From: an uncultured Verrucomicrobiae bacterium
Lineage (GTDB): Bacteria > Verrucomicrobiota > Verrucomicrobiia > Chthoniobacterales > UBA10450
Length of the DNA: 64,000 bases
Reading direction: 5' to 3'
Assembly (NCBI GenBank): GCA_963756875.1
Contig: CAVWPA010000001.1
Location: 512,001-576,000 of the forward strand
Positions 2,607 to 32,295 of this stretch are shown here, piece after piece. Positions within the stretch are counted from its first letter, which is position 1. Every line of letters starts with the position of its first letter. The notes beneath the pieces were generated by a model. That model was not told the DNA's origin and did no database searches. It was given only the letters and a program-made list of their open reading frames with translations. Both the position numbers and the translations under genes were made by a program.

Positions 2607-3895
2607 GGCTCCACTTCCGATCCAAACTCGCCGTCGCTGACCCGCGTTCGAATTCTCATTTTCGGACGAACTGCGGAAACGGTTCGAATTAATTTGCCGG
2701 CTTCATCCGTGGTAATGCTGTAGCCGCGGCGAAGCGTTGCCTCGGGGCCGAGTACCCGCAGGATTCCCTCTGTCTCACGAAAACGGTGCCGCGCATTCTC
2801 CAGGATTCGCAGCGGCAACTCCACGAAACGCCGGCGAAGATCGACCAGCCGGTTGCGCCGAAGAACTAACTCCCCCGAAAGCTTTCGGGGCTGCAGCGCC
2901 GCCGCGATGTGAGCAAGCCCGCGCCTGTAACCGTCGATCTTGTGAGCGAGACAACGATGCAGCGTTTCACGCGCGTGATCGAGCCGCTGCTGCCCATCGC
3001 GCATCCGGCTTAGCAATTCGCGTCCCAGTCCGCGCACGCACGCGTCGATGTGCCGGCGAAGATCGACAATGTCGGGCACGATCAATTCCGCCGCCGCGCT
3101 CGGTGTCGGCGCCCGAAGATCGGCGACGAAATCGGCAATGGTGAAATCGATCTCGTGCCCGACAGCAGAGACAATGGGGACTTCGACATCGGCGATCGTG
3201 CGCGCCACGATCTCTTCGTTGAATTCCCAAAGGTCTTCAATGCTTCCTCCGCCGCGAGTGACCACGATGAGATCGAGAGGCGGCCACTTTTCGTTAGATG
3301 TTGCCAGTTCGCGAATGGCGACTGCAATTTCCTGCGCGGCTCCCGTTCCCTGGACGCGCACAGGATTAATCAGGATTTGCAGCCACGGGGCACGCCGGCG
3401 CAAAACATTCAACATATCGCGAACCGCCGCCCCGCTAGGCGAGGTGACGATCCCGATTCTTCTCGGAAATTTCGGCAGCGGACGTTTTCGATCGATTGCA
3501 AACAAGCCCTCGGCATCGAGTTTGCGTTTGAGTGCTTCGAATTTCGCCTGCAAAACGCCGAGACCGCGTGGCTGGAGGATTTGCACGCTCAGCTGGTATT
3601 GTCCCCGTGCTTCGAAAACCGAGACATTGCCATAAACCTGCACCTGAGTTCCATCCACCAGCGGCTGCCGGAAAAGCGGTATGGTGTTGCGAAAGATGAC
3701 GCAGTTGATCTGGGCGCGTTGGTCCTTGAGCGTGAAATATTGGTGGCCGCTCGGATGCAGTTTGTAGTTTGAAATTTCGCCCTGCACCCAGACCGCACCG
3801 AACTTGGTTTCGAGCGTGCCGCGAATTTGTCGAGTCAACTCCGCGACGGTGAACACCTTGGAGGTTTGGGGGAAGAGGTCGCCGGAGAGTTGCAT
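2603..3895 (-). CDS. xseA: Exodeoxyribonuclease VII large subunit
   Basis: VWVQGEISN, SGHQYFTLKD, VTSPSGAA, RGGGSIEDLWEFNEE, SAVGHEIDFTIADFVADLRAPTPSAAAE. Confidence 0.97.
   Translation of the reverse strand: MQLSGDLFPQTSKVFTVAELTRQIRGTLETKFGAVWVQGEISNYKLHPSGHQYFTLKDQRAQINCVIFRNTIPLFRQPLVDGTQVQVYGNVSVFEARGQYQLSVQILQPRGLGVLQAKFEALKRKLDAEGLFAIDRKRPLPKFPRRIGIVTSPSGAAVRDMLNVLRRRAPWLQILINPVRVQGTGAAQEIAVAIRELATSNEKWPPLDLIVVTRGGGSIEDLWEFNEEIVARTIADVEVPIVSAVGHEIDFTIADFVADLRAPTPSAAAELIVPDIVDLRRHIDACVRGLGRELLSRMRDGQQRLDHARETLHRCLAHKIDGYRRGLAHIAAALQPRKLSGELVLRRNRLVDLRRRFVELPLRILENARHRFRETEGILRVLGPEATLRRGYSITTDEAGKLIRTVSAVRPKMRIRTRVSDGEFGSEVEP
2873..2890. repeat. 18-bp perfect palindrome CCCCGAAAGCTTTCGGGG inside xseA
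   Basis: Identical to the hairpins at 29473-29490 and 29782-29799. Confidence 0.85.
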
Positions 3896-3906
3896 GATTC
3901 TTCTTG

Positions 3907-4044
3907 CCCGCGAATAACGCCAATATACGCGAATTAAGAAACGTCAGAAGTTTGAACGGAAGACGACAAAGGGAACAAGAACCTTGATTGTGTTCGTTTT
4001 CTTCTGTGGATTTTAAATTCGCGTCTATTCGCGTGATTCGCGGG
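3907..4044. repeat. Short-period inverted repeat pair (CGCGAAT / ATTCGCG units)
   Basis: cccgcgaataacgccaatatacgcgaat ... attcgcgtctattcgcgtgattcgcggg. Confidence 0.75.
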
Positions 4045-4048
4045 TTGA

Positions 4049-5068
4049 TTACAACAATTCAGCCTGCGCGCCGGCAGGTGGTTTGAGGCCGAGCTTTTTG
4101 TACACGTTCACGGTGGCGACGCGTCCTTGCGGCGTGCGTTTAATGTAGCCTTCCATGATCAAGTAAGGCTCGTTTACTTCTTCGAGCGTCCCTGCTTCTT
4201 CGCCGATGGCCACCGCGAGCGAATTCAGGCCGACCGGGCCGCCGTTGAATTTATGGATTAACGTTTCGATGATGCGTTTGTCCCACTGATCGAATCCGTC
4301 GCGATCGATCTCCAGCATGGCGAGGGCGCGATCGGCCAGCTCTGCGGTAATTTTGCCTTCCGCTTTCACCTGCACGTAATCGCGAACCCAGCGCAACAGA
4401 TTGTTCGCCGTCCGCGGCGTGCCACGGGTTCGCGTGGCGATCTCAACCGCGCCTGCCTGATCGATCTCGACACCGAGAAGGCGGGCGCTGCGCAGGATGA
4501 TCTTTTGCATTTCCTCCGCGTTGTAATAATCGAGGCGCGCGGTCATGCCGAAGCGCGAACGAAGCGGCGCGCTCACCATTCCGGCGCGCGTCGTTGCCCC
4601 GACCAAAGTGAATTTCGGCAATTGCAAACGAAGACTGCGTGCCTGCGGGCCCTGGTCGATGATAATATCGAGCCGGTAATCTTCCATGGCAGGATAGAGA
4701 TATTCCTCGATTGTCGGTTGCAGCCGATGGATCTCGTCGATGAAAAGAACGTCGCCCTTTTCGAGACTGGTGAGCAATCCGGCGAGTTCGCCGGCTTTTT
4801 CGATGACCGGGCCGCTGGTATTTTTGATGTTCACGCCCATCGCGTTGGCGATGATGTAAGCGAGAGTCGTTTTTCCCAGGCCGGGCGGGCCGCTTAACAA
4901 AATATGTTCGAGCACGTCGCCGCGCCGTTTGGCCGCTTCCACCATCAACTCGATCCGCTCGCGCACTTTCACCTGGCCGGTGAACTCGCTGAACGCCGGC
5001 GGCCGCAGCGAGATTTCGAATGCAGCATCTGGTTCGGGCGGTTTCATGGCGGTCGGCGCAGATTTCAT
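4049..5068 (-). CDS. ruvB: Holliday junction branch migration helicase RuvB
   Basis: [13 protein letters not shown] Walker [28 protein letters not shown]; start codon uncertain (5068 or 5047). Confidence 0.97.
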
Positions 5069-5142
5069 AACATTAGCGAGAAGCTTGTGCACGGCATGAT
5101 TTTAACGCGCAAAATGCGTGGGAATACGCTGGAGAAAAATCC

Positions 5143-5288
5143 GGGGAGCGCACGCGCCCCCGCGTGCCCGTTTCGGCGCCCTCGCCGAAACGCGCCTTTG
5201 ATAGTGCTTACTCGACGAACTTGCGTGCCCCGAAAAGTCCGCGATCGCGAGGGCGCGATCGCCAGCACGCGAGGCGCGTGCGCTCCCC
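5143..5288. repeat. REP/REPIN-like palindromic element (copy B)
   Basis: Same terminal arms as copy A, with inner hairpins tttcggcgccctcgccgaaa and gcgatcgcgagggcgcgatcgc. Confidence 0.9.
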
Positions 5289-5310
5289 GAAGCCTGTGTC
5301 CTCTCCTTCG

Positions 5311-5712
5311 TTATTCCAAGTTCTTCGTGAGCACGAGCTCCGTGCCGCGGGGTTTCAAGATATAATCCACTTTGTCGAATGCGTTTCGGATCAGATTCAA
5401 ACCAAGGCCGCCGGGCCTGAGCTCGGTGTGCGGGCGGCCCTTCATCGCGTGCATCGGCGTTTTCCTGCCGTAATCGCGCAATCGCACCCGGACCGATCCG
5501 CGCAGCCCTTCCATGGACAAGGTAATCACCGCGTCGTCACGCAGCTCGTAGGCGTAACGAATGATATTGGTGCAGGCTTCATCCACGCCGAGCACCATGA
5601 GGAGGCGCTCTTTTTCAGAAAAGGGATAGTCGTCGAGAAATTTTCTCACGTATTTGCGCATCAAAGCGAGATTCGCGGTGTGACTGCTGAACTCGAGCCT
5701 CCTTTTTTTCAT
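5311..5712 (-). CDS. Anti-sigma factor Ser/Thr kinase, RsbW/SpoIIAB-like (HATPase_c_2)
   Basis: DEACTNIIRYAY N-box, RDYG, GGLGLNLI G-box, 133 aa. Confidence 0.88.
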   Translation of the reverse strand: MKKRRLEFSSHTANLALMRKYVRKFLDDYPFSEKERLLMVLGVDEACTNIIRYAYELRDDAVITLSMEGLRGSVRVRLRDYGRKTPMHAMKGRPHTELRPGGLGLNLIRNAFDKVDYILKPRGTELVLTKNLE

Positions 5713-5930
5713 TCAGGAAAGGGAATGCTGAGCCCGGTCCGGTGCTCATTCAAGGGCGCGAGACGGAAAAGATTTCGGATCGAGCAGACATGTCCCCGCC
5801 TTGAAAAGCGATTTGGCGGCGGCGGAATTGCCGCATGCCGGTCAGAAAGCGGTATGTCATTGATCACCATTCGCAAAACCGATGGACAGTAGCCGAAACC
5901 GGTTGTTCAGTTTTAGCATGGGAAAAATAG

Positions 5931-6202
5931 TAGAACGCATCTCACAAATAGAGAACGGGTGCGTTGCCGGAGATTTGGTGCTGCGGCAAGGCGCGAGGAG
6001 GGAGAATATCCCTTTGACCGAGGAGCAACGCGGCCGCAGCGGCAAAGATCGGCAACCCTTCGGGCCAGACTCTGGCCCCGACGCGTCGGGAGCGACGTTG
6101 CTCCTCAGTCACAGAGCGCTTCGGCTATGCTCCTTTGTCGCGCCTTGCCAGCAGCCCGCCAGAGTCTGGCGCACCCATTTCCTATTTGTGAGATGGGTTC
6201 TA
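5931..6202. mobile_element. ~272-bp MITE-like element with ~33-bp terminal inverted repeats (copy 1)
   Basis: tagaacgcatctcacaaatagagaacgggtgcg ... cgcacccatttcctatttgtgagatgggttcta; interior homologous to 12553-12830. Confidence 0.8.
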
Positions 6203-6922
6203 GTAGCGCTGCTGCTTTTTGCAACGCCGGTGCTGGCACAGGACAATGCCACAGCCTATGAAGCTTTGCGCACGGTCGGAGCACACTTCAATCGCGATTC
6301 TCTGAATCACGTAATCTCTGTGACCGGCGTGGACGGTAGTCCTCGGCCGGCGAGATGGAAAATCCTGTTCGAAGACCCGCATGCGCGCGGCGGCGTGCAC
6401 GAGGTCGAAGTCGCAAACGATCGCATCGTTTCGGAACGCACTCCGGTGCGTCCGGTCGTTGGATCGGCGGAAGGTTCGACGATTAACACGTCGCGGTTGA
6501 ATCTCGATTCGAGCGGGGCCTATGCGGTAGCCAGTCACACCGCCGAAAAGTCCCACACAGCGTTTTCGACCGTTAGTTACACGCTACGAACAGACGAGCA
6601 CGGCGATCCTCTTTGGATCGTGACTCTGGAAAATCAATCGCGCCGGCCGGTCGGCACAATTTATATCGGAGCAAACAGCGGCAATGTTACTCGGACAGAG
6701 GGGATGTTTGCCGGCGCCAGCATGCAGGACGTGCAGGTAGCGCGCGATGAGCAGCAGGGCGACAACGACAATGACAACGGCAACGGAGATGACGAAGATC
6801 GCGGCATCTTCAGCGGGCCGAAAGCGCGCATCAAGGACGCGTTTCATCGCACCCAGGATGAGGCGCGCGGCATGTTTCAGCGCGTGCGCCGCTCCTTTTC
6901 CGATTTTATCAACCGGGGCTGA
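6188..6922 (+). CDS. Secreted hypothetical protein
   Basis: GTG start followed by signal peptide RWVLVALLLFATPVLA-Q; the upstream ORF extension from 5882 is repeat-derived. Confidence 0.7.
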   Translation: MRWVLVALLLFATPVLAQDNATAYEALRTVGAHFNRDSLNHVISVTGVDGSPRPARWKILFEDPHARGGVHEVEVANDRIVSERTPVRPVVGSAEGSTINTSRLNLDSSGAYAVASHTAEKSHTAFSTVSYTLRTDEHGDPLWIVTLENQSRRPVGTIYIGANSGNVTRTEGMFAGASMQDVQVARDEQQGDNDNDNGNGDDEDRGIFSGPKARIKDAFHRTQDEARGMFQRVRRSFSDFINRG

Positions 6923-6957
6923 AGCTCACGCCCGGATCAAGGAACCGGCCTGGTCTC

Positions 6958-7911
6958 ATGGAGGATAAGACAAGGGAGCAATTCTGGCCGGCGCTCTCAT
7001 TTGCCGATTGGGGAGAGACCTGCGCAACGCTGCACATGTGGACGCAGATCGTCGGCAAGATCCGGCTGGTGCAGACTCCATGGATAAATCATTCCTGGCA
7101 CGTCACGCTTTATCTCACATCACGTGGCCTAACGACTTCCCCGATACCACACGGCCTCCAGGTTTTCGAGATCCGTTTCGATTTTATTGATCACGAGTTG
7201 CGCATTCTGAAAAGCGACGGAAACACGCGAAAAATAAAACTGCAGCCGCAGTCCGTTGCGAAATTCCTTATGATGGTAATGGAAGCGCTGCGCGAATTGG
7301 AATTGCCGGTCGAGATCGAAATGTTGCCCAACGAGATCGAAAATCCGATTCCGTTTGACCGCGACGAAGAGCATCGCAGCTACGACGGCGCATACGCAAA
7401 TCGGTTCTGGCGTGTGTTGCTCCAGGCGGACCGCGTTTTTAAAGGATTTCGATCGCGTTTCTGTGGCAAATGCAGCCCGGTCCATTTTTTCTGGGGCAGT
7501 TTTGATCTTGCCGTGACGCGCTTCTCGGGGCGTGCCGCGCCACCGCATCCGGGCGGCATCCCGCATCTTCCGGATGCGGTCACGCGCGAAGCCTACTCAC
7601 AGGAGGTGAGCAGTCTCGGTTTCTGGCCGGGTAACGCCGCTGTGCCCACGCCGCTTTTTTATTCTTACGCGTATCCCGAACCGCCGGGGTTTGCGCAGGC
7701 AAAGATCGAGCCGCAGACGGCTGCGTATAACGCCAAAATGCGCGAGTTTACACTCTCGTATGACGAAGTCCGCAACGCTGCATCACCCGATGAGACTTTG
7801 CTCGCATTTGCGCAAAGCACGTACGACGCAGCATCCAAGCTTGCCAAGTGGGACCGCGCTGCGCTGGAAGAAGTGAAACCGTCCTTGCATTTTCCGCGGC
7901 ACCGCCCCTAG
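6958..7911 (+). CDS. DUF5996-like conserved protein
   Basis: TLHMWTQIVGKIRL, NHSWHV, SPVHFFWGSFDLAVTRFSG, EAYSQEVSSLGFWPG, FYSYAYPEP. Confidence 0.8.
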   Translation: MEDKTREQFWPALSFADWGETCATLHMWTQIVGKIRLVQTPWINHSWHVTLYLTSRGLTTSPIPHGLQVFEIRFDFIDHELRILKSDGNTRKIKLQPQSVAKFLMMVMEALRELELPVEIEMLPNEIENPIPFDRDEEHRSYDGAYANRFWRVLLQADRVFKGFRSRFCGKCSPVHFFWGSFDLAVTRFSGRAAPPHPGGIPHLPDAVTREAYSQEVSSLGFWPGNAAVPTPLFYSYAYPEPPGFAQAKIEPQTAAYNAKMREFTLSYDEVRNAASPDETLLAFAQSTYDAASKLAKWDRAALEEVKPSLHFPRHRP

Positions 7912-7922
7912 TTTACACGACA

Positions 7923-8861
7923 ATGATCTCGAAAAACGCAACGCTTGGCGAGCGAGGTGCGTGGCGCGATGTGCAGGACGGATGGCGGCCTCTTTATGGG
8001 GACGTGGACGATCTTGGAGTCAGCGTGGAGTGGCACGATTTTCAGATCGAGCGTTCGCTGGACTGGGGGCTAAGTTTTCATCCGCGCAGCGTCGAGTTTT
8101 GTCTAAATCTCGACGGCCGCGGAGCCGTCGGCGCCCGGTCAAAACGCGATTATCTTCCGGGCACATCGGGCTTTTATTCTCTGGCTGACGCTCCTTTGAG
8201 CGCATCGCGTCGGGCGAACGATCATCATCAATTCGTGACCCTCGAGTTTTCTCGAAAACATTTGCAACAAGAGCTGGAGCAATGCGAAGGAGACCTCGAT
8301 CCTCAAGTCCGCGAGGCGGTGTTCCCGGAGAAGGACGAAACGATCGTCTCGATCCCGCAACCAATCACGGTGGAGCAGCGCAACGTGATTGGGACATTGT
8401 TACAGCCGCCCGTTCCGAAAGCAGCCCAGGCACTCTGGTACCGGAGTAAAGCGCTTGAACTGATGGCGCATTTTCTCTTCGCGCCCAAGGACCCTGAGTT
8501 TTTCTGCATGCGCCAGAAGCGAGTCGCCCGCGAAAGGGTGGAGAGAGTAAAGGAATTGCTCGCGCGCGACCTGGCCAATCCGCCCACACTTGAAATGCTA
8601 GGACAGGATGTCGGTTGCAGCCCGTTTTATCTAAGCCGGATTTTTTCGCGAGAAGTGGGCTTCACCATTCCACAATACCTGCGAAACCTGCGGATGGAAC
8701 GCGCGGCCGAGTTGCTGCGCACCGGTCGCTACAATGTGACCGAAGCGGCCACCGAAGTCGGTTATTCGAGTCTGAGCCATTTCAGCAAGGCATTTTGCGA
8801 AACGATTGGCTGTTGTCCGGTCCTTTATCCCGCAGCCAGGAATGTCATCCTGGATCGCTGA
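7923..8861 (+). CDS. AraC-family transcriptional regulator
   Basis: C-terminal double HTH: LSRIFSREVG..YLRNLRMERAAELL..NVTEAATEVGYSSLSHFSKAF. Confidence 0.92.
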   Translation: MISKNATLGERGAWRDVQDGWRPLYGDVDDLGVSVEWHDFQIERSLDWGLSFHPRSVEFCLNLDGRGAVGARSKRDYLPGTSGFYSLADAPLSASRRANDHHQFVTLEFSRKHLQQELEQCEGDLDPQVREAVFPEKDETIVSIPQPITVEQRNVIGTLLQPPVPKAAQALWYRSKALELMAHFLFAPKDPEFFCMRQKRVARERVERVKELLARDLANPPTLEMLGQDVGCSPFYLSRIFSREVGFTIPQYLRNLRMERAAELLRTGRYNVTEAATEVGYSSLSHFSKAFCETIGCCPVLYPAARNVILDR

Positions 8862-8870
8862 CGCGATCCG

Positions 8871-8940
8871 GTTACAACGTTAAAAGAGTTACATTGTTAC
8901 AACGTTTTCCTTTTTGACTTTGTAACCCTTGTAACCTTTT
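8871..8940. repeat. Short-period inverted repeats (GTTACA / TGTAAC units)
   Basis: gttacaacgttaaaagagttacattgttacaac ... tgtaacccttgtaacc upstream of purH. Confidence 0.7.
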
Positions 8941-8950
8941 CACCCGCCCA

Positions 8951-10474
8951 ATGAAAATCACGCGCGCACTCATCTCTGTTTCCGATAAAAGCGGTGTCGC
9001 CGCGTTCGCGCGCGCGCTGGAGCGCCAGGGCGTGGACATCATTTCGACCGGTGGCACCGCCGAATTGCTGCGCAAGGAGAAGATCCCGGTGCGCGAGATT
9101 TCCAGTTTCACCGGATTTCCAGAAGTCCTGGAGGGCCGGGTCAAGACCTTGCATCCGCGCGTGCATGGCGGTCTGCTTTTCAAACGCGGCAACCCGAAGC
9201 ACGAAGCAGAAGCGAAGGAATGCGGGTTCGAACCGATCGATCTCGTGGTGGTGAACCTTTACCCTTTCGAGGCCACGGTCGCAAAACCGAACGTCACGCT
9301 GGCTGAAGCGATCGAGAACATCGACATCGGCGGGCCATCCATGATCCGCAGCGCGGCGAAAAATTATGAGTCGGTGACGGTGGTTGTAGATCCGGCGGAT
9401 TACGATGCCGTGCTGGAAAACATGCGGGACAACGATGGTGAGACCTCGCTGAAATTGCGCGAGCACCTTGCCATCAAAGCGTTCATCAAAACCTCGGATT
9501 ACGATCGCGCCATCGGCAATTTCCTGAACAAAGAGCAAATTACGGACACTTCATTTTCACTCTCGCTTCCGCTTGTAACGCGTCTGCGTTACGGAGAAAA
9601 CCCGCATCAAACCGCCGCGCTGTACGGCGATTTCGAAAAATATTTTGAAAAGCTTCACGGAAAAGAGCTCTCCTTTAACAACATTCTCGACATCAGCGCT
9701 GCGACCAACCTGATTGCGGAATTTAACGAGCCGACGGTGGCAATTTTGAAACACACCAATCCGTGTGGCGTCGGTTCCGATTCCAACCTGGTCGAGGCCT
9801 GGGGGAAAGCCTTTGCCACGGATAAACAGGCGCCGTTCGGCGGAATTATCATTTGCAACCGGTCGATCGACGAACCGTTGGCCAAGACGATCAGTGAGAT
9901 TTTTTCCGAAGTGATTATCGCGCCCAATTTCGAGGCGGAGGCGCGTGCCGTTTTGCAAAAGAAGAAAAACCTGCGGCTGATTCGCCTGGCTGCTCCGGCG
10001 GCGGATGCGAGATCGAAAACCGACATCCGCTCGGTTTGCGGGAGTGTGCTCGTGCAAGACTCAGATATGGCAAGCGAGCATCCGCGGAATGTTGTTACAA
10101 AACGGCAGCCGACCAAAAAAGAGCTGGCGGCGATGGTTTTCGGTTGGCGCGTGGTCAAGCACGTCAAGTCGAATGCGATTGTTTACGCCGCACCGGATCG
10201 CACAATGGGAATTGGCGCCGGTCAAATGTCGCGTATCGATGCTTCACGCATTGCCATTTGGAAGGCGGAGGAGGCCGGGCTTTCGCTCAAAGGAAGCGCA
10301 GTCGCGAGCGACGCCTTTTTTCCGTTTCCCGATGGTCTCATTGCCGCCGCGGATGCCGGCGCGACATGCGCCATTCAACCCGGCGGATCGGTTCGCGATG
10401 AGGAAGTGATTGCCGCCGCGAATGAGCGCAAGTTGGCGATGATTTTCACCGGCGTGCGCCATTTTCGGCACTAA
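8951..10474 (+). CDS. purH: Bifunctional AICAR transformylase/IMP cyclohydrolase
   Basis: [57 protein letters not shown]. Confidence 0.98.
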
Positions 10475-10507
10475 AAACAATAGTTGAGCCGGCGAGGCGG
10501 CCTTTCA

Positions 10508-11671: not shown

Positions 11672-11722
11672 TTTCGACTCGCCGCCATGATAATATCGAA
11701 TGTCGGCCGCCTTAAAAGCTGG

Positions 11723-11923
11723 TCATCGGCCGCCGCCGGCCAGTCGCCACATCCAAATGCAGAGCACGCAGGCGACGACAAGGGCCACCCAGCTCACTCC
11801 CATTGGGATCGAATGAGTCGCTACGACTACCTTGGCCCGGGTGAAAAGCCGGATCGCATGGCCCAGTGCAAAAATTGCGAGAATCAGCGCCGCCACATAC
11901 AGTCCAGTTTGTTGTGAGTTCAT
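11723..11923 (-). CDS. Small two-TM membrane protein
   Basis: 66 aa with two hydrophobic helices. Confidence 0.6.
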   Translation of the reverse strand: MNSQQTGLYVAALILAIFALGHAIRLFTRAKVVVATHSIPMGVSWVALVVACVLCIWMWRLAGGGR

Positions 11924-12019
11924 GATTGCATTTTTGATGTCGATCTTTGTTTTGTCATTAAAAATGCGTCTCCGGTAACCAGTAGGGGAGGAGGCAGTCG
12001 TCTCCTTTTTCTCTATTCG

Positions 12020-12541: not shown

Positions 12542-12552
12542 GCGATTGCCTT

Positions 12553-12830: not shown

Positions 12831-12945
12831 CACTTTGTGGTTCTTTCTCTTCACAATATTTGATATCGGTTGTGGCCGCTGGATGCAATGCTTCGCAAGG
12901 TGGGCGTGGCTGTTTCGCAGCGACGGCGACAGAGAGCGCCCTGCT

Positions 12946-13851: not shown

Positions 13852-13858
13852 CGGAGCC

Positions 13859-16441: not shown

Positions 16442-16792
16442 TCATTTCCTCATCATCGCGTCCCGCCGGGCTTTTCGCGTAAAAGGCTGCGCCTCACGCG
16501 ACTCGTTAAAAGGCTCCGGGCCTTTAGTTCGGAGGGGATATTTCGCGAAATAATTCCGCAGTTGCGAGCGCAAGAATCTTCGACTTCCACCGCTTTCTAA
16601 GTATCGCTCGCGACCAAATGCATCAGCTTCTTCGGTATAGGCCTCATAATGGATCAGATTCCATGGACCTCGAAAGCTCGTAGCCTGCACTGCTCCGCTT
16701 TTATGTTCGTTCAGCCGTCGTCGCAAGTCGGTCGAGAATCCGATGTACAGTCCCGCATCTCGTGCTGAATGAAGCAAGTAGACGTAAAACAT
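16442..16792 (-). CDS. Stand-alone GIY-YIG nuclease
   Basis: FYVYLL..LYIGFSTDLRRRLNEH..T..RGPW..YEAY..A..RERYLESG. Confidence 0.92.
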   Translation of the reverse strand: MFYVYLLHSARDAGLYIGFSTDLRRRLNEHKSGAVQATSFRGPWNLIHYEAYTEEADAFGRERYLESGGSRRFLRSQLRNYFAKYPLRTKGPEPFNESREAQPFTRKARRDAMMRK

Positions 16793-21939: not shown

Positions 21940-21949
21940 CGTCCGCTCT

Positions 21950-23254: not shown

Positions 23255-23322
23255 GATCGATCCGCCTTCGTTATGACTACGGCGTGACAAGCAACCGTTA
23301 GTTCATTTATAAGATCGACATC

Positions 23323-25317: not shown

Positions 25318-25460
25318 AGCTGTCGTTTCGTAAAGGCGACGCCCCGCCGTCCGGCATCCGGGAGGGCACCTTGTAGCCACGGCGCTCTGTCGCCGTGTCT
25401 TCACTTCGGGCCTCCGCGATGCGCCCCGACAGAGCCCGTTCGACTTCGCTCAGGGCAGGC
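25314..25460. repeat. Cluster of short REP-like motifs after shc
   Basis: gtagccacggcgctctgtcgccgtg (GTAG plus hairpin) and ttcgacttcgctcagggcaggct. Confidence 0.55.
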
Positions 25461-25536
25461 TTATTTGGCGGCTGCACTGTTTAACGCAAAAAATAAAACC
25501 TGCCGGCAAACGGAATTCGATCTAACAGTAGAGATT

Positions 25537-26136
25537 ATGGCTTACGAACTACCAAAACTACCCTATCCATACGAAGCGCTGGAACCGCATATCGATGCGC
25601 GAACGATGGAAATCCATTACACCAAGCATCACCAGGCTTACGTCAACAACGTCAACAACGCGATCAAAGGCAAACCCGACCTGGAGAAAAAATCGGTCGA
25701 GGAGCTGATCAGCGATCTCAAGTCGGTGCCGGAAGATATTCGCACCGTTGTCCGCAACAATGGGGGCGGCCACGCCAACCATTCCTTCTTCTGGAAAATC
25801 ATGGGCCCGAACGCGGGTGGCGAGCCAAAGGGCAAACTGGCTGACGACATCAAGTCGACATTCGGCGACTTTAACGCCTTCAAGGAAAAGTTTGCAGCCG
25901 CGGCGGGCGGCCGTTTCGGAAGCGGCTGGGCGTGGCTGATAAAGAACAAAGGCGGCAAGCTGGAGATTGTTTCGACACCGAACCAGGACAGTCCGTTAAT
26001 GGACGGCAACAGACCTGTGATTGGTCTCGATGTCTGGGAACACGCTTATTATCTGAAATATCAGAACCGGCGGCCCGACTACGTCAAAGCCTGGTGGAAC
26101 GTTGTGAATTGGGACGCCGTCGCCAAAAACTACTAA
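25537..26136 (+). CDS. sodA: Mn/Fe superoxide dismutase
   Basis: [44 protein letters not shown]; the NGGGH and NQD signatures favour the Mn type. Confidence 0.93.
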
Positions 26137-26138
26137 GA

Positions 26139-26214
26139 ATGGAGAAATGGAGTATTGGAGTAGGGGAGTAATGGTCTTTCCATTTCTCCTTCACTCCATG
26201 ACTCCAACACTCTA
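26139..26214. repeat. Short-period inverted repeats (TGGAGTA / ACTCCA 8-mers)
   Basis: atggagaaatggagtattggagtaggggagta ... cactccatgactccaacactc. Confidence 0.75.
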
Positions 26215-26254
26215 TTCCTGATGGCGTGTCTTAAATTGCTGGCGGCGCTTCTTT

Positions 26255-26322
26255 CTGTAGCGGCGGTCTATGACCGTCGCTAGATTCGCTCGTGTTCCGG
26301 CGGTCGCAGACCGCCGCTACAG
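26255..26322. repeat. GTAG-type REP doublet
   Basis: ctgtagcggcggtctatgaccgtcg ... cggcggtcgcagaccgccgctacag. Confidence 0.8.
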
Positions 26323-26325
26323 GTG

Positions 26326-27561
26326 ATGGCGTATCTAAACGAAAATTATCTCAAGCTTCAGGCGGGATATCTCTTCCCTGAAATCGCGCGGCGCGTGCGC
26401 GAGTTTTGCGATGCGGATCCAGAAGGAGCCGGAAGACTAATCCGTTGCGGAATCGGGGATGTGACAGAGCCGTTGCCGCGCGCGGCAATCGAGGCGATGA
26501 AACGCGCCATCGAAGAACTCGGACATCGCGAAACATTTCGAGGATATGGTCCGGAACAGGGCTACGAGTTTCTCCGGTCGACCATCGCGCAGAAAGACTA
26601 TCGCGATCGCAAAATCGATGTCGCAGACGACGAAATTTTCGTTTCTGACGGGTCGAAATGCGATTTTGGCTACATTCTCGACATTCTCGGCGACCAGAAC
26701 AAGGTCGCGATCACCGATCCGGTTTATCCGGTCTATGTGGATACAAATGTGATGACCGGGCATACCGGTCCGGCTCGAAAAGATGGCAGCTACGAAGGAA
26801 TCGTCTATCTGCCGTGCACCGCGGAAAACAATTTTGTTCCCGAACCGCCCAGGGAACATGTCGATCTCATTTACCTTTGTTTTCCGAATAATCCGACGGG
26901 CGCCGTGGCATCGCGTGAGCAGCTTGCGCGCTGGGTCCATTATGCGCATGAGCACGATGCGTTGATTCTCTTTGACGCGGCCTACGAGGCGTACATTTCG
27001 GAACCGGAGATTCCGCATTCCATTTTCGAGATTCCCGGCGCCCGGGAATGTGCGATTGAGCTGCGCAGTTTCTCCAAGAACGGCGGGTTCACCGGCGTGC
27101 GTTGCGGCTTCACCGTCGTGCCGAAAACGCTGCTCGGCCGCACAGAGTCAGGGAAAAAATTGCCGTTGCATCCGCTCTGGAATCGGCGCTGGAGCACAAA
27201 AGCGAACAGTGTGAGTTATCCCGTTCAGCGCGGAGCGGAAGCATTGTATTCTCCGGAAGGCCGCCAACAGGTGCGCGGACTGATCGACCATTACATGGGG
27301 AACGCGAAAATCCTCCGTGAAGCTTGCGCCGAAACCGGCATGCTTGTTTTCGGCGGGGTAAACGCGCCTTACATATGGGTGAAAACCCCGAGTGGCCGCA
27401 CCAGTTGGCAGGTATTCGACCAAATGTTACGCGAGCTGAATGTAGTCGTTACTCCGGGAAGCGGATTTGGCGCGCAAGGAGAAGGGTATTTTCGCGTCTC
27501 CGCCTTCAACAGCCGAAGTAATGCCGAAGAAGTAGCGCGGCGGCTTCGAGCGCTGGCGTAA
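26326..27561 (+). CDS. dapL: LL-diaminopimelate aminotransferase
   Basis: [55 protein letters not shown]. Confidence 0.95.
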
Positions 27562-27569
27562 TTGTAATC

Positions 27570-27632
27570 AGGAGCAAGAGCAAGAGCATGAGCATGAGCA
27601 TGAGAAGGGTTTTCCTCCTCCTCCTGCTCATG
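27570..27632. repeat. Hexamer tandem repeats (GAGCAW) with a partial inverted partner
   Basis: gagcaagagcaagagcatgagcatgagcatgag ... ctcctcctgctcatg. Confidence 0.7.
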
Positions 27633-27714
27633 ATCGACGGAGGGTCCGACCGACATCTCCCCTTGCGCTACAGGCTCGGTAGGTAACATTCCCCTTTTTG
27701 GGAAAGAAGTCAGC

Positions 27715-28194
27715 GTGTCCGAATCGAAGCAAAATCTCCTCCAGCTCTATCGCTTTTGTTTTTTGATGCTGGCCGACGCGAGCAAGGCGGAGGAGGTTTT
27801 TCACGCTACGCTGCGACAAGCCGCACAGAATTCAGCGGCGGGCGAACCTCCTCGCGATCGCCTGTGGTTTTTCCGCGATGCCCGCTGGCGATGTCTGGAA
27901 GCTGGCGAACAAGGTCTGCAGGCTGAAGATGTCGAACTGGAGGAGGAGCAGATCGCTCCCTCGGCGTCGGCGCAAATCGAAAAACTTGAGCCGGCACAAC
28001 TCGCGATCTGGATTGCCGCTGCCTCGGATCCCCAGCGAACAGCGCTGGCCCTGTTCTATCTCGATGAATTCAATGACGCGGAATTGCTTTCGGTCTGCGA
28101 ACTGAAACCGGTGGAGCTGGCAAAATTGCTCTCGGAAGGACGCCATCAATTTCAAGCCTGGCTCAATGCGACAATGCCCGTTACCGAGACATGA
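27715..28194 (+). CDS. Divergent ECF sigma-factor-like protein
   Basis: LYRFCFLML..AEEVF (region 2-like), QRTALALFYLDEF (region 4-like); coupled to a downstream TM protein. Confidence 0.6.
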   Translation: MSESKQNLLQLYRFCFLMLADASKAEEVFHATLRQAAQNSAAGEPPRDRLWFFRDARWRCLEAGEQGLQAEDVELEEEQIAPSASAQIEKLEPAQLAIWIAAASDPQRTALALFYLDEFNDAELLSVCELKPVELAKLLSEGRHQFQAWLNATMPVTET

Positions 28195-28958
28195 TTGCCT
28201 TGTCCCGCCGCCACCGTTTGTTTCTCCAATTCGCCCCGATCAGTGAGGAGCGGGTGCGGGATCGCCGCATGCGAGTTGCGTTGCACCGCGCGCGCAAGGA
28301 CGAAGGATTTGCCGCGCAACAGAATTTCGATCGCGCGGTTGCGGCGCTCGTTCGCGCGATTCCGATCCCTCAGCCAATCACAGATTGGGTTCCGGAAGAG
28401 ACGCTCATTTCGGCGCCACAACGCCCATGGAAAAAATACGCGCAACACCCGGCGATTGTCGCCACCGCGATCGCCGTTGCGGTGATTGCCGGTGTCTTCG
28501 TGTTTCATGTGATCGACAATCTGAATGATTTTCCAAACGAAGATACCGCGCGAAAGTTGCTGGGAGTGGCAAGCTCGACACGGTCACTGGTTCTTGATCC
28601 GGTGAAGACGGATGCCGGAGAACTCGGCGATCTCTTCTTCATGAAATATCGGCTGGAACATTATGATGTGCCGCCCGAGTTCGCCGACTTTCGGACATTG
28701 GGTTACCGCGTTTTTCCCGATGAGGAAGCGCAGCGGGTCGCCCAGATCTGGGTAGTCGAGAAGCGCATGCAGTTTTTTATTTTTCGAGCCGAGAAAGACC
28801 CCAAAACAGGCGCGCCGCGGGAATTTTCAGGCTGGCGTTATGTGGAGCAGGAAGGATGGGCCGGCGTGATCGAAGAGCGCAACGGCATTTGTTTTATGGC
28901 GGCCATGCGCGGGCGGGAAAAAGATCTGGCGCCGTATATCGCGAAAAAAAGCGATTAG
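28191..28958 (+). CDS. Single-TM putative anti-sigma factor
   Basis: ATGA overlap with the upstream sigma-like gene, cytoplasmic N-terminus, one TM, C-terminal domain. Confidence 0.55.
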   Translation: MIALSRRHRLFLQFAPISEERVRDRRMRVALHRARKDEGFAAQQNFDRAVAALVRAIPIPQPITDWVPEETLISAPQRPWKKYAQHPAIVATAIAVAVIAGVFVFHVIDNLNDFPNEDTARKLLGVASSTRSLVLDPVKTDAGELGDLFFMKYRLEHYDVPPEFADFRTLGYRVFPDEEAQRVAQIWVVEKRMQFFIFRAEKDPKTGAPREFSGWRYVEQEGWAGVIEERNGICFMAAMRGREKDLAPYIAKKSD

Positions 28959-29030
28959 ATTCGGCTTTGGGAAAGCCGTGCAGGGCCAACGTTGACTCTT
29001 CGTCATAGGCCATTCAACTTTGTGCCGCCT

Positions 29031-29122
29031 GCCAGGGTGGCTCAGCGGCCTGCTCGCGAAGACTTTCGGAGTAGAGCAGCCCGAAAGTATTCGGGGTTGG
29101 TCGCGCGGAGTTTTGCCTGGTA
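29031..29122 (+). pseudogene. Degenerate copy of the adjacent tRNA carrying two hairpin insertions
   Basis: gccagggtggctcagcgg[cctgctcgcgaagactttcgga]gtagagcag[cccgaaagtattcgggg]ttggtcg...cctggta. Confidence 0.75.
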
Positions 29123-29141
29123 TTCTTTGAACGAAATTGTT

Positions 29142-29213
29142 GCCAGGGTAGCTCAGCGGTAGAGCAGGGGACTCATAAGCCCTTGGTCGGGAGTTCAATT
29201 CTCCCCCCTGGCA
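29142..29213 (+). tRNA. tRNA with CAT anticodon (probably Ile2/lysidine type; elongator Met not excluded)
   Basis: Acceptor stem GCCAGGG/CCCTGGC+A, D arm GCTC-AGCGGTA-GAGC, loop CTCATAA, T arm GGGAG-TTCAATT-CTCCC. Confidence 0.92.
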
Positions 29214-29224
29214 CTTTTTACGCA

Positions 29225-29467
29225 ATGGCTTGGGTTTACATTATTCGCGGTTCGTCAGGCCGACACTACATTGGTTCCACAGTCGATCTCGACGCGCGAT
29301 TCGCCCAGCATTTACGTGGTCATACTGCCACAACCAAGCGACTCGGCGAGATGCTTGAGATCGTCGCAAAAAAAGAATTTCCAACTTTGGCTGAAGCTCG
29401 AAAAATCGAGCGCTCATTGAAACGAAAAAGGAATCCAAAGCTCGCAATTTATCACTTGCGGCAGTAG
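29225..29467 (+). CDS. Minimal GIY-YIG nuclease, array copy 1 (80 aa)
   Basis: WVYII..HYIGST..RFAQH..ARKIERSLK; the TAG stop is part of the tRNA-derived GTAGAGCAG. Confidence 0.9.
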   Translation: MAWVYIIRGSSGRHYIGSTVDLDARFAQHLRGHTATTKRLGEMLEIVAKKEFPTLAEARKIERSLKRKRNPKLAIYHLRQ

Positions 29468-29521
29468 AGCAGCCCCGAAAGCTTTCGGGGTTGGTCGGGA
29501 GTTCAATTCTCCCCCCTGGCA
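29464..29521 (+). repeat. tRNA 3' two-thirds copy with anticodon arm replaced by CCCCGAAAGCTTTCGGGG (repeat 1)
   Basis: gtagagcag-[hairpin]-ttggtcgggagttcaattctcccccctggca, identical to the tRNA outside the hairpin. Confidence 0.92.
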
Positions 29522-29533
29522 GGTTTTTGAATA

Positions 29534-29776
29534 ATGGCCTGGGTTTATATTCTCCGCGGCTCCTTAGGCAGACACTACATCGGTTCCACGGTCGATCTCG
29601 ACGCACGGTTTGCGCAACATTTACGCGGTCATACTGCAACAACCAAGCGACTCGGTGGAAAGCTTGAAATAGTTGCCAAAAAAGAAGTTTCAACGCTGGC
29701 TGAAGCTCGAAAAATCGAGCGCTCATTGAAACGAAAAAGGAATCCAAAGCTCGCAATTTATCACTTGCGCCAGTAG
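29534..29776 (+). CDS. Minimal GIY-YIG nuclease, array copy 2 (80 aa)
   Basis: 74/80 aa identical to copy 1. Confidence 0.9.
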   Translation: MAWVYILRGSLGRHYIGSTVDLDARFAQHLRGHTATTKRLGGKLEIVAKKEVSTLAEARKIERSLKRKRNPKLAIYHLRQ

Positions 29777-29830
29777 AGCAGCCCCGAAAGCTTTCGGGGT
29801 TGGTCGGGAGTTCAATTCTCCCCCCTGGCA
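29773..29830 (+). repeat. tRNA 3' copy with palindrome-replaced anticodon arm (repeat 2)
   Basis: Identical to repeat 1, 309 bp downstream. Confidence 0.92.
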
Positions 29831-29843
29831 CTTTTTTCGAACA

Positions 29844-29867
29844 ATGGCCTGGGTCGATATTCTTCGC
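29844..29867 (+). pseudogene. 5' remnant of a third GIY-YIG copy (MAWVDILR)
   Basis: atggcctgggtcgatattcttcgc at the same offset after the tRNA repeat, then homology is lost. Confidence 0.7.
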
Positions 29868-29984
29868 TTTCGGAGTTCTCCTACCGGGGCTCTTATTGCG
29901 GATCGGCGAGTGTGGATTGCGGATTGCTTTCGGAATTCTCCCCGGTGATTTTTTAATTGGAGCATTCAAAAATAGAACGCGACG

Positions 29985-30012
29985 TTGACAGAGTTCGCAG
30001 CGATCCTATACT
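29985..30012 (+). promoter_or_regulatory. Putative sigma70 promoter for rplI-dnaB
   Basis: TTGACA-N16-TATACT. Confidence 0.6.
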
Positions 30013-30065
30013 CGTGACCCTGCGGCCGGCCCCTTAACCAACCGGTTTTTTGCGCGGAAACGATC

Positions 30066-30614
30066 ATGTCTTCGACTGAAATTATTTTAACTGAGAACAT
30101 CCCCGGACTTGGTGCGGAAGCCGATCTGGTAAAGGTGCGCCGTGGCTATGCCCGAAATTATCTGTTGCCGCAGGGCAAAGGTTACGAAGTAACGCCGGCC
30201 AGCCTGCGAGAACTGGACAACCTGAAAAAGAAGCGGGCCGAGCGTGAAGCGCGGGAGCTCAACGACGCCGAAGAATTAAACAGGCGAATCGGGAAATTGC
30301 GGGTGACGTTCACACTGGAAACTGGCGAGACGGGCAAGGCATTCGGTTCGATCACGGCGCAGGATATTGTAACGCGCATTAAGCAGGAGATCGGCCAGGA
30401 CATTGACCGGCACAAAGTTGCGCTGGAGCGGCCGATCAAGGATACCGGCGAGCATGAGGTCGCAATCAAGCTTCATCACGAGGTCACTGCGCAATTTAAG
30501 TTCGATGTGAAATCGGCGGAGGAACCCCGCAACCGGGGAACCGAAGAAGCCGAGGACGAACCGTCTGAAAAGAAGCACCGTTCGTTTTTCCGGAGAAAGA
30601 AAGAAACAAAATAA
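30066..30614 (+). CDS. rplI: 50S ribosomal protein L9
   Basis: LG..DLVKVRRGYARNYLLPQG, GKAFGSIT, PIKDTGEH. Confidence 0.96.
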   Translation: MSSTEIILTENIPGLGAEADLVKVRRGYARNYLLPQGKGYEVTPASLRELDNLKKKRAEREARELNDAEELNRRIGKLRVTFTLETGETGKAFGSITAQDIVTRIKQEIGQDIDRHKVALERPIKDTGEHEVAIKLHHEVTAQFKFDVKSAEEPRNRGTEEAEDEPSEKKHRSFFRRKKETK

Positions 30615-32120
30615 ATGGCGACTCAACCATCGTCCCCGTGGACGGGTGAGAAGCCTCGTAAAGCAGCTGGAAATGGCGCTGGCCGAGGTTCGGCGCCGCG
30701 AAGCGACGGAAAAGTTCTTCCCAATTCGCCAACAGGTTCTGCGCAGGATATTCACCGCGCGCCGCCGAACAGTGTCGAAGCCGAGCAGGGCGTCCTTGGC
30801 TCGATGCTCATCTCACCGCGGGAGGCGATCGCTGAGTGCGTGGAAAAGATTACCGGCGACTACTTCTATGTTCCCGCGCACCAGACCATCTATGATGTCC
30901 TAGTCGATCTCTGGAATGCAGGGCAAGCGATCGATCTGATTACGTTCACCCAGGTCCTGCGCGACCGGAATTTGCTGGAGGGCGTGGGGGGGCCGGCGTT
31001 TGTCACCAGCCTGTTCACCTTTGTTCCGACAGCCGCGAATGTCGGCTACTACCTCGATATCGTTCGAGATAAATACATTTTGCGCTCCATTATCGCTGCC
31101 GCCACCGAGAGTGTGCGGCGCGCTTACGAAGAGCAGGATGAAGTGAGCAGCCTGCTCGATGAGGTGGAGCAGAAGATCTTTGCCGTGGGAGAAGAGCGCT
31201 TCAAAGGCCAACTCCCGACGATCAAGGAACTCGTCATGGGAACCCTGGAATCGATGGAGAAGCTTTACGAAACCAAGGGCGCGCTCACCGGAATCTCAAC
31301 GGGACTACGCGATTTCGATCGACTGACGAGTGGATTGCACGCGGGAGAAATGATTGTGATCGCCGCCCGGCCCAGCATGGGTAAGACCGCCCTTGCAATG
31401 AACATTGCAGAACACGTTGCGATCAATGAAAAGCTCCCTGTCGCTGTGTTCAGTCTGGAGATGAGCAGCCAGCAGCTTGTACAGCGTCTGCTTTGTTCCC
31501 GGGCGCGCGTAAACCTTTCCAAGACACGGGACGGCTTCCTGAGTCAGCAGGATTTTCCGAAATTGACGCACGCGGCAGCCAAGCTTGCGGAAGCGCAAAT
31601 CTTCATAGACGACTCCGCGGGACTGGACATCCTGCAACTGCGGGCAAAGGCGCGCCGATTAAAGTCCCAGGAAAAGATTCGGTTAATCGTAGTGGACTAC
31701 CTGCAGTTGGTGCGGTCTTTGTCGCGCCGTGCGCAGGACAATCGGCAGCTGGAAATTTCCGAGATTTCGGCTGGCCTGAAGGGTTTGGCGAAGGAATTGA
31801 ACATTCCGATCATCGTAGTTGCGCAGTTGAATCGAAACCCGGAGACCCGCACCGGAAGCGGCAAGGGCGTTCCGCGGCTTGCGGACTTGCGCGAATCCGG
31901 GTCCATCGAGCAGGATGCCGACGTTGTTGGATTGCTGGTGCGCGAGGAATATTATGCCGACACTCCCGAGGAGAAGGAGGATCTGAAAGGCAAAGCCGAG
32001 TTGATTATCGCCAAGCAGCGCAACGGCCCGATCGGGGAGATCAAGCTCACCTTCCTTCACGAGTTCACTCGGTTTGAAGACCGGGCTGAGGATCTTCCGG
32101 AGCCGGAAGAAGCATTTTAG
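30615..32120 (+). CDS. dnaB: Replicative DNA helicase DnaB
   Basis: PPNSVEAEQ, AARPSMGKT, FSLEMS, VDYLQL, AQLNR, DLRESGSIEQDAD, KQRNGP; no intein. Confidence 0.98.
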   Translation: MATQPSSPWTGEKPRKAAGNGAGRGSAPRSDGKVLPNSPTGSAQDIHRAPPNSVEAEQGVLGSMLISPREAIAECVEKITGDYFYVPAHQTIYDVLVDLWNAGQAIDLITFTQVLRDRNLLEGVGGPAFVTSLFTFVPTAANVGYYLDIVRDKYILRSIIAAATESVRRAYEEQDEVSSLLDEVEQKIFAVGEERFKGQLPTIKELVMGTLESMEKLYETKGALTGISTGLRDFDRLTSGLHAGEMIVIAARPSMGKTALAMNIAEHVAINEKLPVAVFSLEMSSQQLVQRLLCSRARVNLSKTRDGFLSQQDFPKLTHAAAKLAEAQIFIDDSAGLDILQLRAKARRLKSQEKIRLIVVDYLQLVRSLSRRAQDNRQLEISEISAGLKGLAKELNIPIIVVAQLNRNPETRTGSGKGVPRLADLRESGSIEQDADVVGLLVREEYYADTPEEKEDLKGKAELIIAKQRNGPIGEIKLTFLHEFTRFEDRAEDLPEPEEAF

Positions 32121-32122
32121 TT

Positions 32123-32295
32123 TCCGGGGAGCGCACGCGCCTCGCGTGCAAATGCCTGTCCGGCCCGGACTTTCGGCACCCTCGCCGAAACGCTCTGTGC
32201 ATTATCAGCGAGAGAGATCCCAGACACTTTTAAAAGTTCGCGCCCCCGAAAGCGTTCGGGGTCGCTAGCACGCGAGGGCGCGTGCGCTCCCCGGA
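32123..32295. repeat. REP/REPIN-like palindromic element (copy D) with two nested mini-hairpins
   Basis: Family arms plus atgcctgtccggcccggac and cccccgaaagcgttcgggg inserts. Confidence 0.88.

Follow-up and report, generated by a model that had tools for sequence, protein, structure and literature searches.

Ssn proteins are 94-aa enzymes that consist of a single GIY-YIG domain, and according to the account of Chenal et al. (2025; PMC11893778) they bind a hairpin repeat (NTS/SRM) exclusively in single-stranded DNA (ssDNA), where the cut is made a few bases upstream of the hairpin. NTS/SRM copies are described there as typically bracketing the ssn gene, and dispersed copies can number up to hundreds. 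How these hairpin repeats expand is left open in that account, as is the role of the family outside Neisseria. Repetitive extragenic palindromes (REPs) are another type of dispersed repeat; in the description of Di Nocera et al. (2013; PMC3733652) they are short and mostly intergenic, some are found in open reading frames (ORFs) including DNA-repair genes, and some are nested in small palindromes. Base-for-base replacement is absent from the REP account in that article. Here an 18-nt hairpin, designated HP, is characterized, which was found in a stretch of 64,000 nt (called "the window" throughout; C1:512001-576000) of the 2.69-Mb genome of a Udaeobacter-like bacterium of the Chthoniobacterales (G000). 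HP is dispersed in this genome, and it is also a fixed part of a cassette in which a gene for an 80-aa GIY-YIG protein directly follows a tRNA gene. What is new is evidence from sequence comparisons for overwriting, i.e., an exact hairpin-for-hairpin replacement that would be an unreported mode of spread. In a literature search of titles and abstract openings, no description of a tRNA-resident GIY-YIG cassette or of hairpin overwriting was found.

HP has the general sequence CCCCGAA-N4-TTCGGGG and comprises a 7-bp stem and a 4-nt loop. A sequence-only reading of the window had proposed a dispersed 18-bp palindrome, and it was verified that this palindrome is real. Five matches with up to three mismatches are present in the window, compared to 0.09 expected, and none of 100 shuffled sequences reached five. 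Three matches are exact (2873-2890, 29473-29490 and 29782-29799), one has three mismatches (29079-29096) and one has a single mismatch (32244-32261); the sites had been predicted correctly, with deviations of zero to one base. The genome contains 10 exact copies, 37 copies with at most one mismatch and 61 with at most three mismatches. Among the 428 hairpins of G000 with a 7-bp stem and a 4-nt loop, HP is the most common with 37 copies, followed by a runner-up with 25. Chance or convergence could be ruled out, because, in addition to the result with the shuffled window, a reversed control pattern had no match in all 41 and 61 genomes searched. The loop is mostly AGCN or NGCT, and the variation is confined to its two outer bases, therefore the unit is the hairpin. 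The center of the perfect 18-mer is a HindIII site (AAGCTT), which is lost in most variants by alteration of one outer loop base. In 25 of the 37 G000 copies HP is flanked by G and T (A and C on the opposite strand), compared to a background of 12.5%, and the same flank was found at 8 of 16 sampled loci in genome G012 and 6 of 15 in G076; in these counts, copies inside repeat families are not independent of one another. Together with the flanking G and T, the resulting 20-mer has a folding energy of -12.5 kcal/mol as RNA and -7.4 kcal/mol as DNA.

The exact copy at 2873-2890 lies in xseA, the gene for the large subunit of exonuclease VII (2603-3895, minus strand; Exonuc_VII_L, E 3.5e-91), where it is read in frame as PRKLSG, in accordance with the earlier proposal that xseA harbors a copy. 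The protein was compared with 15 aligned orthologues, of which the five closest are informative; the remoter ones align poorly or with gaps in this region. LQ-PRKLSG-EL of G000 corresponds to LQ-(A/S/T)RSPAR-EL in G008, G009, G012, G014 and G010, and no indel is present. The displaced DNA, (T/G)CGCGC-AGTCCN-GCGCGC (encoding ARSPAR), is itself an 18-nt GC hairpin. The orthologous sites therefore do not show a simple insertion but the replacement of a resident hairpin, 18 nt for 18 nt. The signature of miniature inverted-repeat transposable elements or insertion sequences, i.e., terminal inverted repeats, a target-site duplication and a gain in length, was not found at xseA; there is no duplication, and the flanks are the same as in alleles without HP. 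The central claim of the sequence-only reading, that stem-loops are overwritten without target duplication, was thus borne out at this site, and also in REPs, REP doublets forming hairpins (REPINs) and tRNA copies (see below), where the inner hairpin is replaced and the basal pairs are kept.

To obtain further alleles, metagenome contigs were scanned with a pattern of conserved xseA flanks and 18 free bases, which favors alleles with conserved flanks. Among the 108 alleles found, 83 carry a GC hairpin similar to GCGCGCAGTCCNGCGCGC, 24 carry HP and 1 has another sequence. The 9 nt on each side of the tract vary alike in both groups, and identical flanks were found with both states, therefore the exchanged tract comprises the 18 bases and nothing more. 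A maximum-likelihood tree was calculated with 2 x 250 flanking bases of 102 alleles, after removal of rows with less than 200 nt on one side; L163, which has a very long branch, was in addition removed for the approximately unbiased (AU) test. The 21 HP alleles of this tree need five changes, at least four of which are forced by well-supported branches. The AU test rejected a single HP clade (p 5e-5, and 5e-12 without G000). The nearest pair of an HP and a non-HP allele differs at 28 of 600 flank positions versus 10 of 18 positions within the tract. From the tree and the AU test it follows that the resident hairpin was replaced by HP, or that HP reverted, several times. In G012 (L089), a member of a different genus, another variable loop of xseA contains TCCCGAAAGGCTTCGGGG, which is similar to HP and encodes SRKASG, with three residues more than in most orthologues.

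It might be argued that no dedicated enzyme is needed for such exchanges, and that template switching or ectopic micro-conversion between hairpins, combined with selection for a stable hairpin acting as terminator or mRNA stabilizer, has generated the HP copies. Palindromes are known hot spots of template switching. The folding energies of the 20-mer given above fit to this explanation, and one G000 copy (C3:1600918) is indeed a classic terminator with a stem extension and a T run. At xseA, however, flanking homology for a conversion is lacking, and a terminator rationale is not at hand for a replacement that occurred in frame and recurrently. Furthermore, the same 7-bp stem and the G..T flank recur in unrelated contexts, and HP is absent in 11 of 30 relatives without the cassette despite many other hairpins in their genomes. 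An enzyme-free spread of HP is regarded as improbable.

A second group of replacements was found in REPs. About 10 G000 copies of HP are located at the tip of REPs of the main GTAG-tagged family, which consists of CTGTAGCGG, an inner hairpin (CGGTCTATGACCG or CGCTCTATGAGCG) and TCGC. The usual inner hairpins are present in about 70 copies, and in about 10 of the roughly 85 members (GTAGCGG-[..]-TCGC) the inner hairpin is swapped for HP and the GCGG/TCGC base is retained. About eight further copies are located at the center of GTAGGGCG...CGCCCTAC REPINs, where HP replaces the inner halves of both REPs together with the spacer. In a composite REP family, HP is present in 3 of about 110 loci and replaces (T)GGCGAGGGCGCC(A) between GCGA and TCGC; the family was defined by 130 strand-wise pattern matches, and some palindromic cores were counted on both strands. 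One of these loci is in the window (32233-32292, plus strand), with HP at 32244-32261 (loop AGCG) as the first inner hairpin, followed by the GCACGCGAGGGCGCGTGC hairpin of the family. In the copy at 5234-5271 (plus strand) the same flanks enclose GATCGCGAGGGCGCGATC, the common inner hairpin of the family, and a further copy at 52283-52319 has another inner hairpin, again with the flanks of 32233-32274. The proposed contrast between a REP copy with HP and copies with other inner hairpins was thereby confirmed. In a tRNA-Ala cassette, which belongs to another GIY-YIG subfamily, the downstream direct repeat carries AG-HP-CT versus a hairpin H1 (AGTCTACGCTC...GAGCGTAGACT) upstream.

The assumption that HP always caps a longer hairpin did not hold. 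In G000 the flanks pair at 3.68 of 8 positions versus 3.05 with shuffled partners, no excess was found in G012 and G076, and capping was seen only inside REP families. About eight G000 copies fall in a family related to a second repeat, HP2 (see below), and the remaining ones, including the terminator mentioned above, are singletons. The expectation that the displaced sequence is a hairpin thus held for xseA, REPs and REPINs, but many dispersed copies of other genomes are found in unique contexts, where no displaced hairpin was demonstrable. One HP lies in frame in the linker of a lipoyl-domain acyltransferase (E2) gene, sucB-like as judged by eye without a profile check. For the in-frame copies in genes of G012 and G076, the identity of the orthologues (41-70%) was too low to assign a direction of change. 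A long ORF of G000 (C3:1513730-1515805; yyaL-like, also judged by eye without a profile check) contains a whole GTAGCGG-HP-TCGC REP in frame, together with the partner of this REP; about 35 residues are thereby added, much like the palindromic elements of Rickettsia (RPEs).

The GTAG tag is present where HP lies inside GTAGCGG REPs (about 10 copies), and it is absent at the HP copies of the cassette, of xseA and of the singletons. The residence in REPs and REPINs nevertheless has to be weighed as the basis of an alternative, namely that HP is a mere REP core that is moved or amplified by Y1 transposases of the REP-associated tyrosine transposase (RAYT) or IS200-like type, and that its presence in the GIY-YIG cassette is secondary. 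The genome of G000 contains six Y1_Tnp genes, and enzymes of this class cut and rejoin ssDNA at the feet of hairpins, as is in part laid out in the discussion of PMC11893778. HP was not found in the 250-nt flanks of any of the six Y1_Tnp (RAYT-like) genes, and four of them carry different REP-like repeats of their own on both sides. These four genes (about 150-160 aa; C3:12137, C2:136900, C1:672335 and C3:1385666) each have their own REP type, and one is flanked by long arrays of it (CTGTAGAGGCAGGCGTGTCGCCTGC...). For a size of 2.7 Mb, the G000 genome is unusually rich in distinct families of hairpin repeats.

The other three HP copies of the window belong to the cassette locus at a tRNA-Met gene, all features of which are on the plus strand unless stated otherwise. 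A pseudo-tRNA-Met (29031-29122) directly follows the native promoter; it consists of the tRNA 5' half with an HP2 copy in the D loop (29049-29071), a degenerate HP (29079-29096) instead of the anticodon arm, and a decayed 3' part. It is followed by an intact tRNA-Met (CAT; 29142-29214) and by the first GIY-YIG ORF of 80 aa (29225-29467), which starts 10 nt past the tRNA 3' end and stops inside a copy of the D-stem 3' strand. In the first tRNA mimic (29464-29521), GTAGAGCAG is followed by HP (29473-29490), which substitutes for the anticodon arm, and then by TTGG, a T arm and an acceptor 3' strand. A tandem second cassette consists of another 80-aa ORF (29534-29776), whose product is 93% identical to that of the first, and a second mimic (29773-29830) with HP at 29782-29799. 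The truncated start of a third cassette ORF (ATGGCCTGGGTCGAT...; 29844-29880) was read directly from the sequence. After each of the two complete ORFs the order is GAGCAG-[HP]-TTGG, versus GAGCAG, the 15-nt anticodon arm and TTGG in the intact tRNA-Met; the sequence-only reading had correctly noticed this position of HP. In an Rfam scan of the locus only the true tRNA was recovered, and the mimics fell below an E of 1 for no family.

The D-loop copy had been taken as a variant of HP. A hairpin is indeed present at 29049-29071 (minus strand), but it belongs to a different repeat, HP2 (CTCCGAAAGNNTTCGCGAGCAGG), which has 37 copies with up to four mismatches in G000 and shares only a CCGAAAG..TTCG core with HP. 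At two loci of genomes of another family (f7; L211 and L212) an HP2-like hairpin is nested in the loop of the cassette HP, hence hairpin nesting occurs besides replacement.

The two ORFs of the window matched Pfam GIY-YIG (PF01541) with 52.6 and 48.7 bits (cut-off 22.6; E 5.6e-14), and the domain spans residues 1-72 of the 80 aa, showing that the product is a single-domain protein. The GIY-YIG catalytic residues Y5, Y15, R25, H29, E61 and N69 are conserved in 38 distinct cassette proteins; in alignment A1 with 29 rows, Y5, Y15, R25, E62 and N70 (A1 numbering) are invariant and H29 is conserved in at least 90%. Among 120 listed homologues, most have a length of 79-88 aa and about a dozen have 102-129 aa. 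The ORFs start 5-14 nt past the 3' end of a tRNA or mimic, behind a T-rich spacer without a visible Shine-Dalgarno sequence (29215-29224 and 29522-29533 in the window; loci L016-L045), and this arrangement suggests that the ORF might be co-transcribed with the tRNA and translated from a very short leader. A homodimer acting on the palindrome was dropped as a reading, SsnA being monomeric according to PMC11893778.

For the conservation of the locus, 60 other genomes of the family were analyzed, most of which represent different genera; the sample includes the unpublished genomes G007 and G014, and no claim is based on these two alone. A homologue of the GIY-YIG protein is encoded in 35 of the 60 genomes at E <=1e-5 and in 30 at E <1e-10. 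A distance of 5-14 nt between a tRNA-Met(CAT) or tRNA-Lys(TTT) gene and the ORF start was found at 26 of 30 family loci (19 tRNA-Met and 11 tRNA-Lys in total), and equally at 26 of 30 HP follows immediately 3' of the ORF, exactly in place of nt 28-42 of the anticodon arm. In the 30 fetched loci, the stop codon overlaps the copy of the D-stem 3' strand, and HP is followed by TTGG, a T arm and an acceptor 3' strand that matches the local upstream tRNA. An upstream pseudo-tRNA with a second HP is present at 17 of 30 loci; in it, the tRNA 5' half and HP are followed by the beginning of the 3' half and a spacer of about 30 nt. The order of the full locus is thus native promoter, tRNA 5' half, HP, a short 3'-half piece, spacer, intact tRNA, a gap of 5-14 nt, the 80-aa ORF, (GT)AGAGCAG, HP, and TTGG with T arm and acceptor 3' strand. 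Hence the gene is bracketed by HP copies at the position of the anticodon arm, with G27 and T43 kept. The G..T flank of the dispersed copies corresponds to this G27.T43 pair, therefore the copied unit is often the 20-mer G-HP-T; xseA is an exception, where only the 18 bases were exchanged.

All five cassette-free family genomes that were inspected have a plain promoter-tRNA locus. Three of the five share the upstream gene with G000, therefore the pseudo-tRNA at 29031-29122 is located where the tRNA gene originally was, with the working tRNA and the ORFs further inside. The same layout was found in other families of the order, with the same stem in f7 and f11 and with a covarying stem (CCCCGAC..GTCGGGG) in f12 and f13. 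The pattern GAGCAG-CCCCG-N8-CGGGG-TTGG was detected at at least 117 loci, mostly labelled Verrucomicrobiota and covering several orders. The divergence of the cassette roughly follows that of the host (76-86% identity for the protein versus 78-82% for XseA). The tRNA-site HPs are therefore an ancient and conserved part of the cassette and not, as had been assumed, targets that were freshly overwritten in G000; rather, the cassette is probably the source of HP. Likewise, HP is not a free-floating tiny unit but a fixed component of the 80-aa GIY-YIG cassette across genera and orders, by which the suspected link to the GIY-YIG gene was substantiated.

Tandem arrays were found at some loci (L031, L038, L224 and L280). 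L031 has six pseudo-tRNA-HP units with a period of 78 nt, and other arrays have three units at about 87 nt and four at 87 nt. A genome labelled Verrucomicrobiales has five HP-bearing units with a 340-nt period and four protein matches in the locus. This layout is reminiscent, as a possible analogy, of the repeat arrays found upstream of type III toxin genes. Other small GIY-YIG subfamilies are encoded just after the genes for tRNA-Met(2), tRNA-Ala, tRNA-Gly and tRNA-Gln, the last of which is broken (G000 C1:661846, C1:157979, C1:355784 and C3:436872); long direct repeats, made up of the tRNA 3' end and of trailer hairpins, flank each of them. For a further GIY-YIG copy, in the window (16598-16792, minus strand), no tRNA is found in the vicinity, and 25-bp inverted repeats (CGCGTAAAAGGC...CACGCG) are present on its two sides.

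Bracketing by two HPs, the solo pseudo-tRNA-HP units and arrays such as L031, and the tandem cassettes could also be understood if the whole HP-bounded element (HP-tRNA-ORF-HP) were the mobile unit, which would insert into hairpins and collapse to solo HPs by recombination between its two HPs. A full element was, however, not seen away from tRNAs; both ORFs of this clade in G000 and those of 29 of the 30 family loci adjoin a tRNA. In addition, repeated insertion and collapse at one and the same xseA site would demand a very high efficiency. It is thus very hard to believe that HP spreads in this way.

HP is present in 49 of the 60 other family genomes with 1-52 copies, and the reversed control pattern was again missing everywhere. 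The comparison that had been suggested, of HP abundance with the presence of the GIY-YIG clade, revealed a median of 9 copies in the 30 genomes with the clade, none of which had zero, versus a median of 1 in the 30 genomes without it, 11 of which had zero. At least 10 copies were found in 15 of 30 versus 1 of 30 genomes, and the only high-copy genome of the clade-negative set, G076 with 44 HPs, contains a degenerate cassette. In a sample of the order with one genome per family, HP was absent in 15 of the 16 other families, and f7 genomes with the cassette or a weaker match to its protein have 3-30 copies.

The number of HP copies is also correlated with that of Y1_Tnp genes (Spearman rho 0.71 for the 60 genomes and 0.76 within the GIY-positive ones), in line with an amplification of HP by Y1 transposases. 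In f7, however, G030 has eight Y1 genes, no cassette and no HP, versus four Y1 genes, a cassette and 30 HPs in G183, and G030 rules out that Y1 transposases are a sufficient cause. Moreover, the conservation of HP in the cassette extends across orders and includes genomes without dispersed copies, and HP by itself has no GTAG or CGTC tag. The idea that HP is primarily a REP core therefore appears unlikely.

Altogether, it seems reasonably likely that HP is the cognate ssDNA site of the small GIY-YIG nuclease, and that the activity of this enzyme starts the copying of the hairpin. The cassettes at tRNA genes would serve as HP reservoir. The protein would bind or cut HP in ssDNA, and this activity would start copy-choice or gap repair, during which the hairpin of the template would be skipped and HP would be copied in instead, i.e., a non-homologous hairpin-for-hairpin swap. 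The copied unit would often be the 20-mer G-HP-T, without target duplication and with untouched flanks. Nicking by the GIY-YIG enzyme with subsequent templated repair, as suggested in the sequence-only reading, is likewise hypothetical. The replaced hairpins include the inner hairpins of REPs and REPINs and, several independent times, the GC hairpin in xseA. HP-tipped REPs could then be amplified by the REP machinery as variant repeats, which would explain the correlation with Y1 genes. A more far-reaching and tentative generalization is that Ssn-type nucleases drive an undescribed process, which might be called hairpin conversion, by which a cognate hairpin of 18-20 nt would be written base for base over unrelated hairpins on either strand, even in frame in genes, without homology or target duplication. 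It would be a route for the expansion of NTS/SRM-like repeats, and the anticodon arms of tRNA copies would have been its primordial targets.

Several points weigh against the nuclease-driven copying of HP. The correlation with Y1 gene number is as strong as that with the cassette, and these associations are inflated by the relatedness of the genomes, by incomplete metagenome-assembled genomes and by the one to three HPs of the cassette itself. In four genomes of f12 and f13 a variant hairpin is present only inside the cassette, therefore the cassette is insufficient for dispersal; G006 contains the cassette and only four HPs. For the singleton HPs of G012 and G076 no displaced hairpin was demonstrable, and the complementarity of their flanks did not exceed that of shuffled partners. 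Recombination within xseA could have inflated the number of origins derived from the flank tree. The best relatives of the cassette protein in the PDB are UPF0213 proteins, with an E of only 1e-4, and none of the 37 HPs of G000 overlaps any of the 20 matches to a regular expression for the published SRM consensus. Simple homing, finally, is disfavored, since the empty tRNA would then be the site that is cut by the nuclease, and yet an intact tRNA persists inside the filled locus.

The xseA alleles, the REP elements and the tRNA copies offer natural before-and-after pairs for the replacement by a nuclease-linked hairpin. With these, the spread of a repeat is turned into a testable question, namely whether the 80-aa enzyme triggers hairpin replacement in ssDNA. 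The results also indicate that small hairpin repeats are able to change short parts of a coding sequence without a shift of the reading frame, and that tRNA-resident GIY-YIG cassettes are tied to a dispersed repeat in the genomes of their hosts, soil Verrucomicrobia.

The in-frame occurrence in coding sequences is a property that HP shares with RPEs and with the highly iterated palindrome HIP1. Both are palindromic repeats that are also found in frame in protein-coding genes, RPEs as insertions of 100-150 bp and HIP1 as an 8-bp sequence with thousands of copies. To our knowledge, neither replaces a resident hairpin base for base or belongs to a nuclease cassette, in contrast to HP, which does both. 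RPEs are mentioned in PMC3733652 as well. The likeness to the REP/RAYT systems of that article is that GTAG REPs and REPINs of G000 can be tipped by HP. The differences are that HP itself lacks a GTAG or CGTC tag, that it replaces hairpins rather than nesting in them, that its conserved home is the GIY-YIG cassette, and that no RAYT gene is flanked by HP (0/6) in the manner of a REPtron. SegB, a free-standing GIY-YIG homing endonuclease of the T4 tRNA cluster (PMC2330249), is comparable in that its gene lies among tRNA genes and that filled and empty loci exist in relatives. According to the description given there, SegB is a phage enzyme of larger size with several domains, which cleaves double-stranded DNA, whereas the cassette protein is a bare 80-aa domain; an intact tRNA is kept inside the cassette locus, and a dispersed hairpin accompanies the protein.

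The pair of HP and GIY-YIG protein resembles Ssn/NTS, which is the closest known system, and the cassette protein is a candidate for the Ssn family (cd10448; PMC11893778). Shared with the Ssn systems, as far as these are described in that article, are a GIY-YIG protein of about 80-94 aa without an extra domain and a gene bracketed by one hairpin, which is found here downstream at 26 of 30 and also upstream at 17 of 30 loci, as in NTS-ssnA-NTS. In both cases the same hairpin is dispersed in tens to hundreds of copies, the number of copies is linked to whether the gene is present, conserved flanking bases orient the hairpin, and the hairpin covaries with the lineage of the nuclease. The differences are that here the hairpin exactly replaces the anticodon arm of a tRNA and the gene directly follows the tRNA, that exact hairpin replacement was observed, and that the copy numbers of HP are lower (up to 52). 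The terms "tRNA" and "Verrucomicrob" do not occur in the main text of PMC11893778. Its Supplementary Data 4 contains a cd10448 homologue of Chthoniobacter flavus, which belongs to the same order, without SRM enrichment (0.96-fold). A cd10448-positive species without enrichment of the known repeat fits to the notion that the nucleases of this order may have a cognate hairpin of their own that has escaped recognition.

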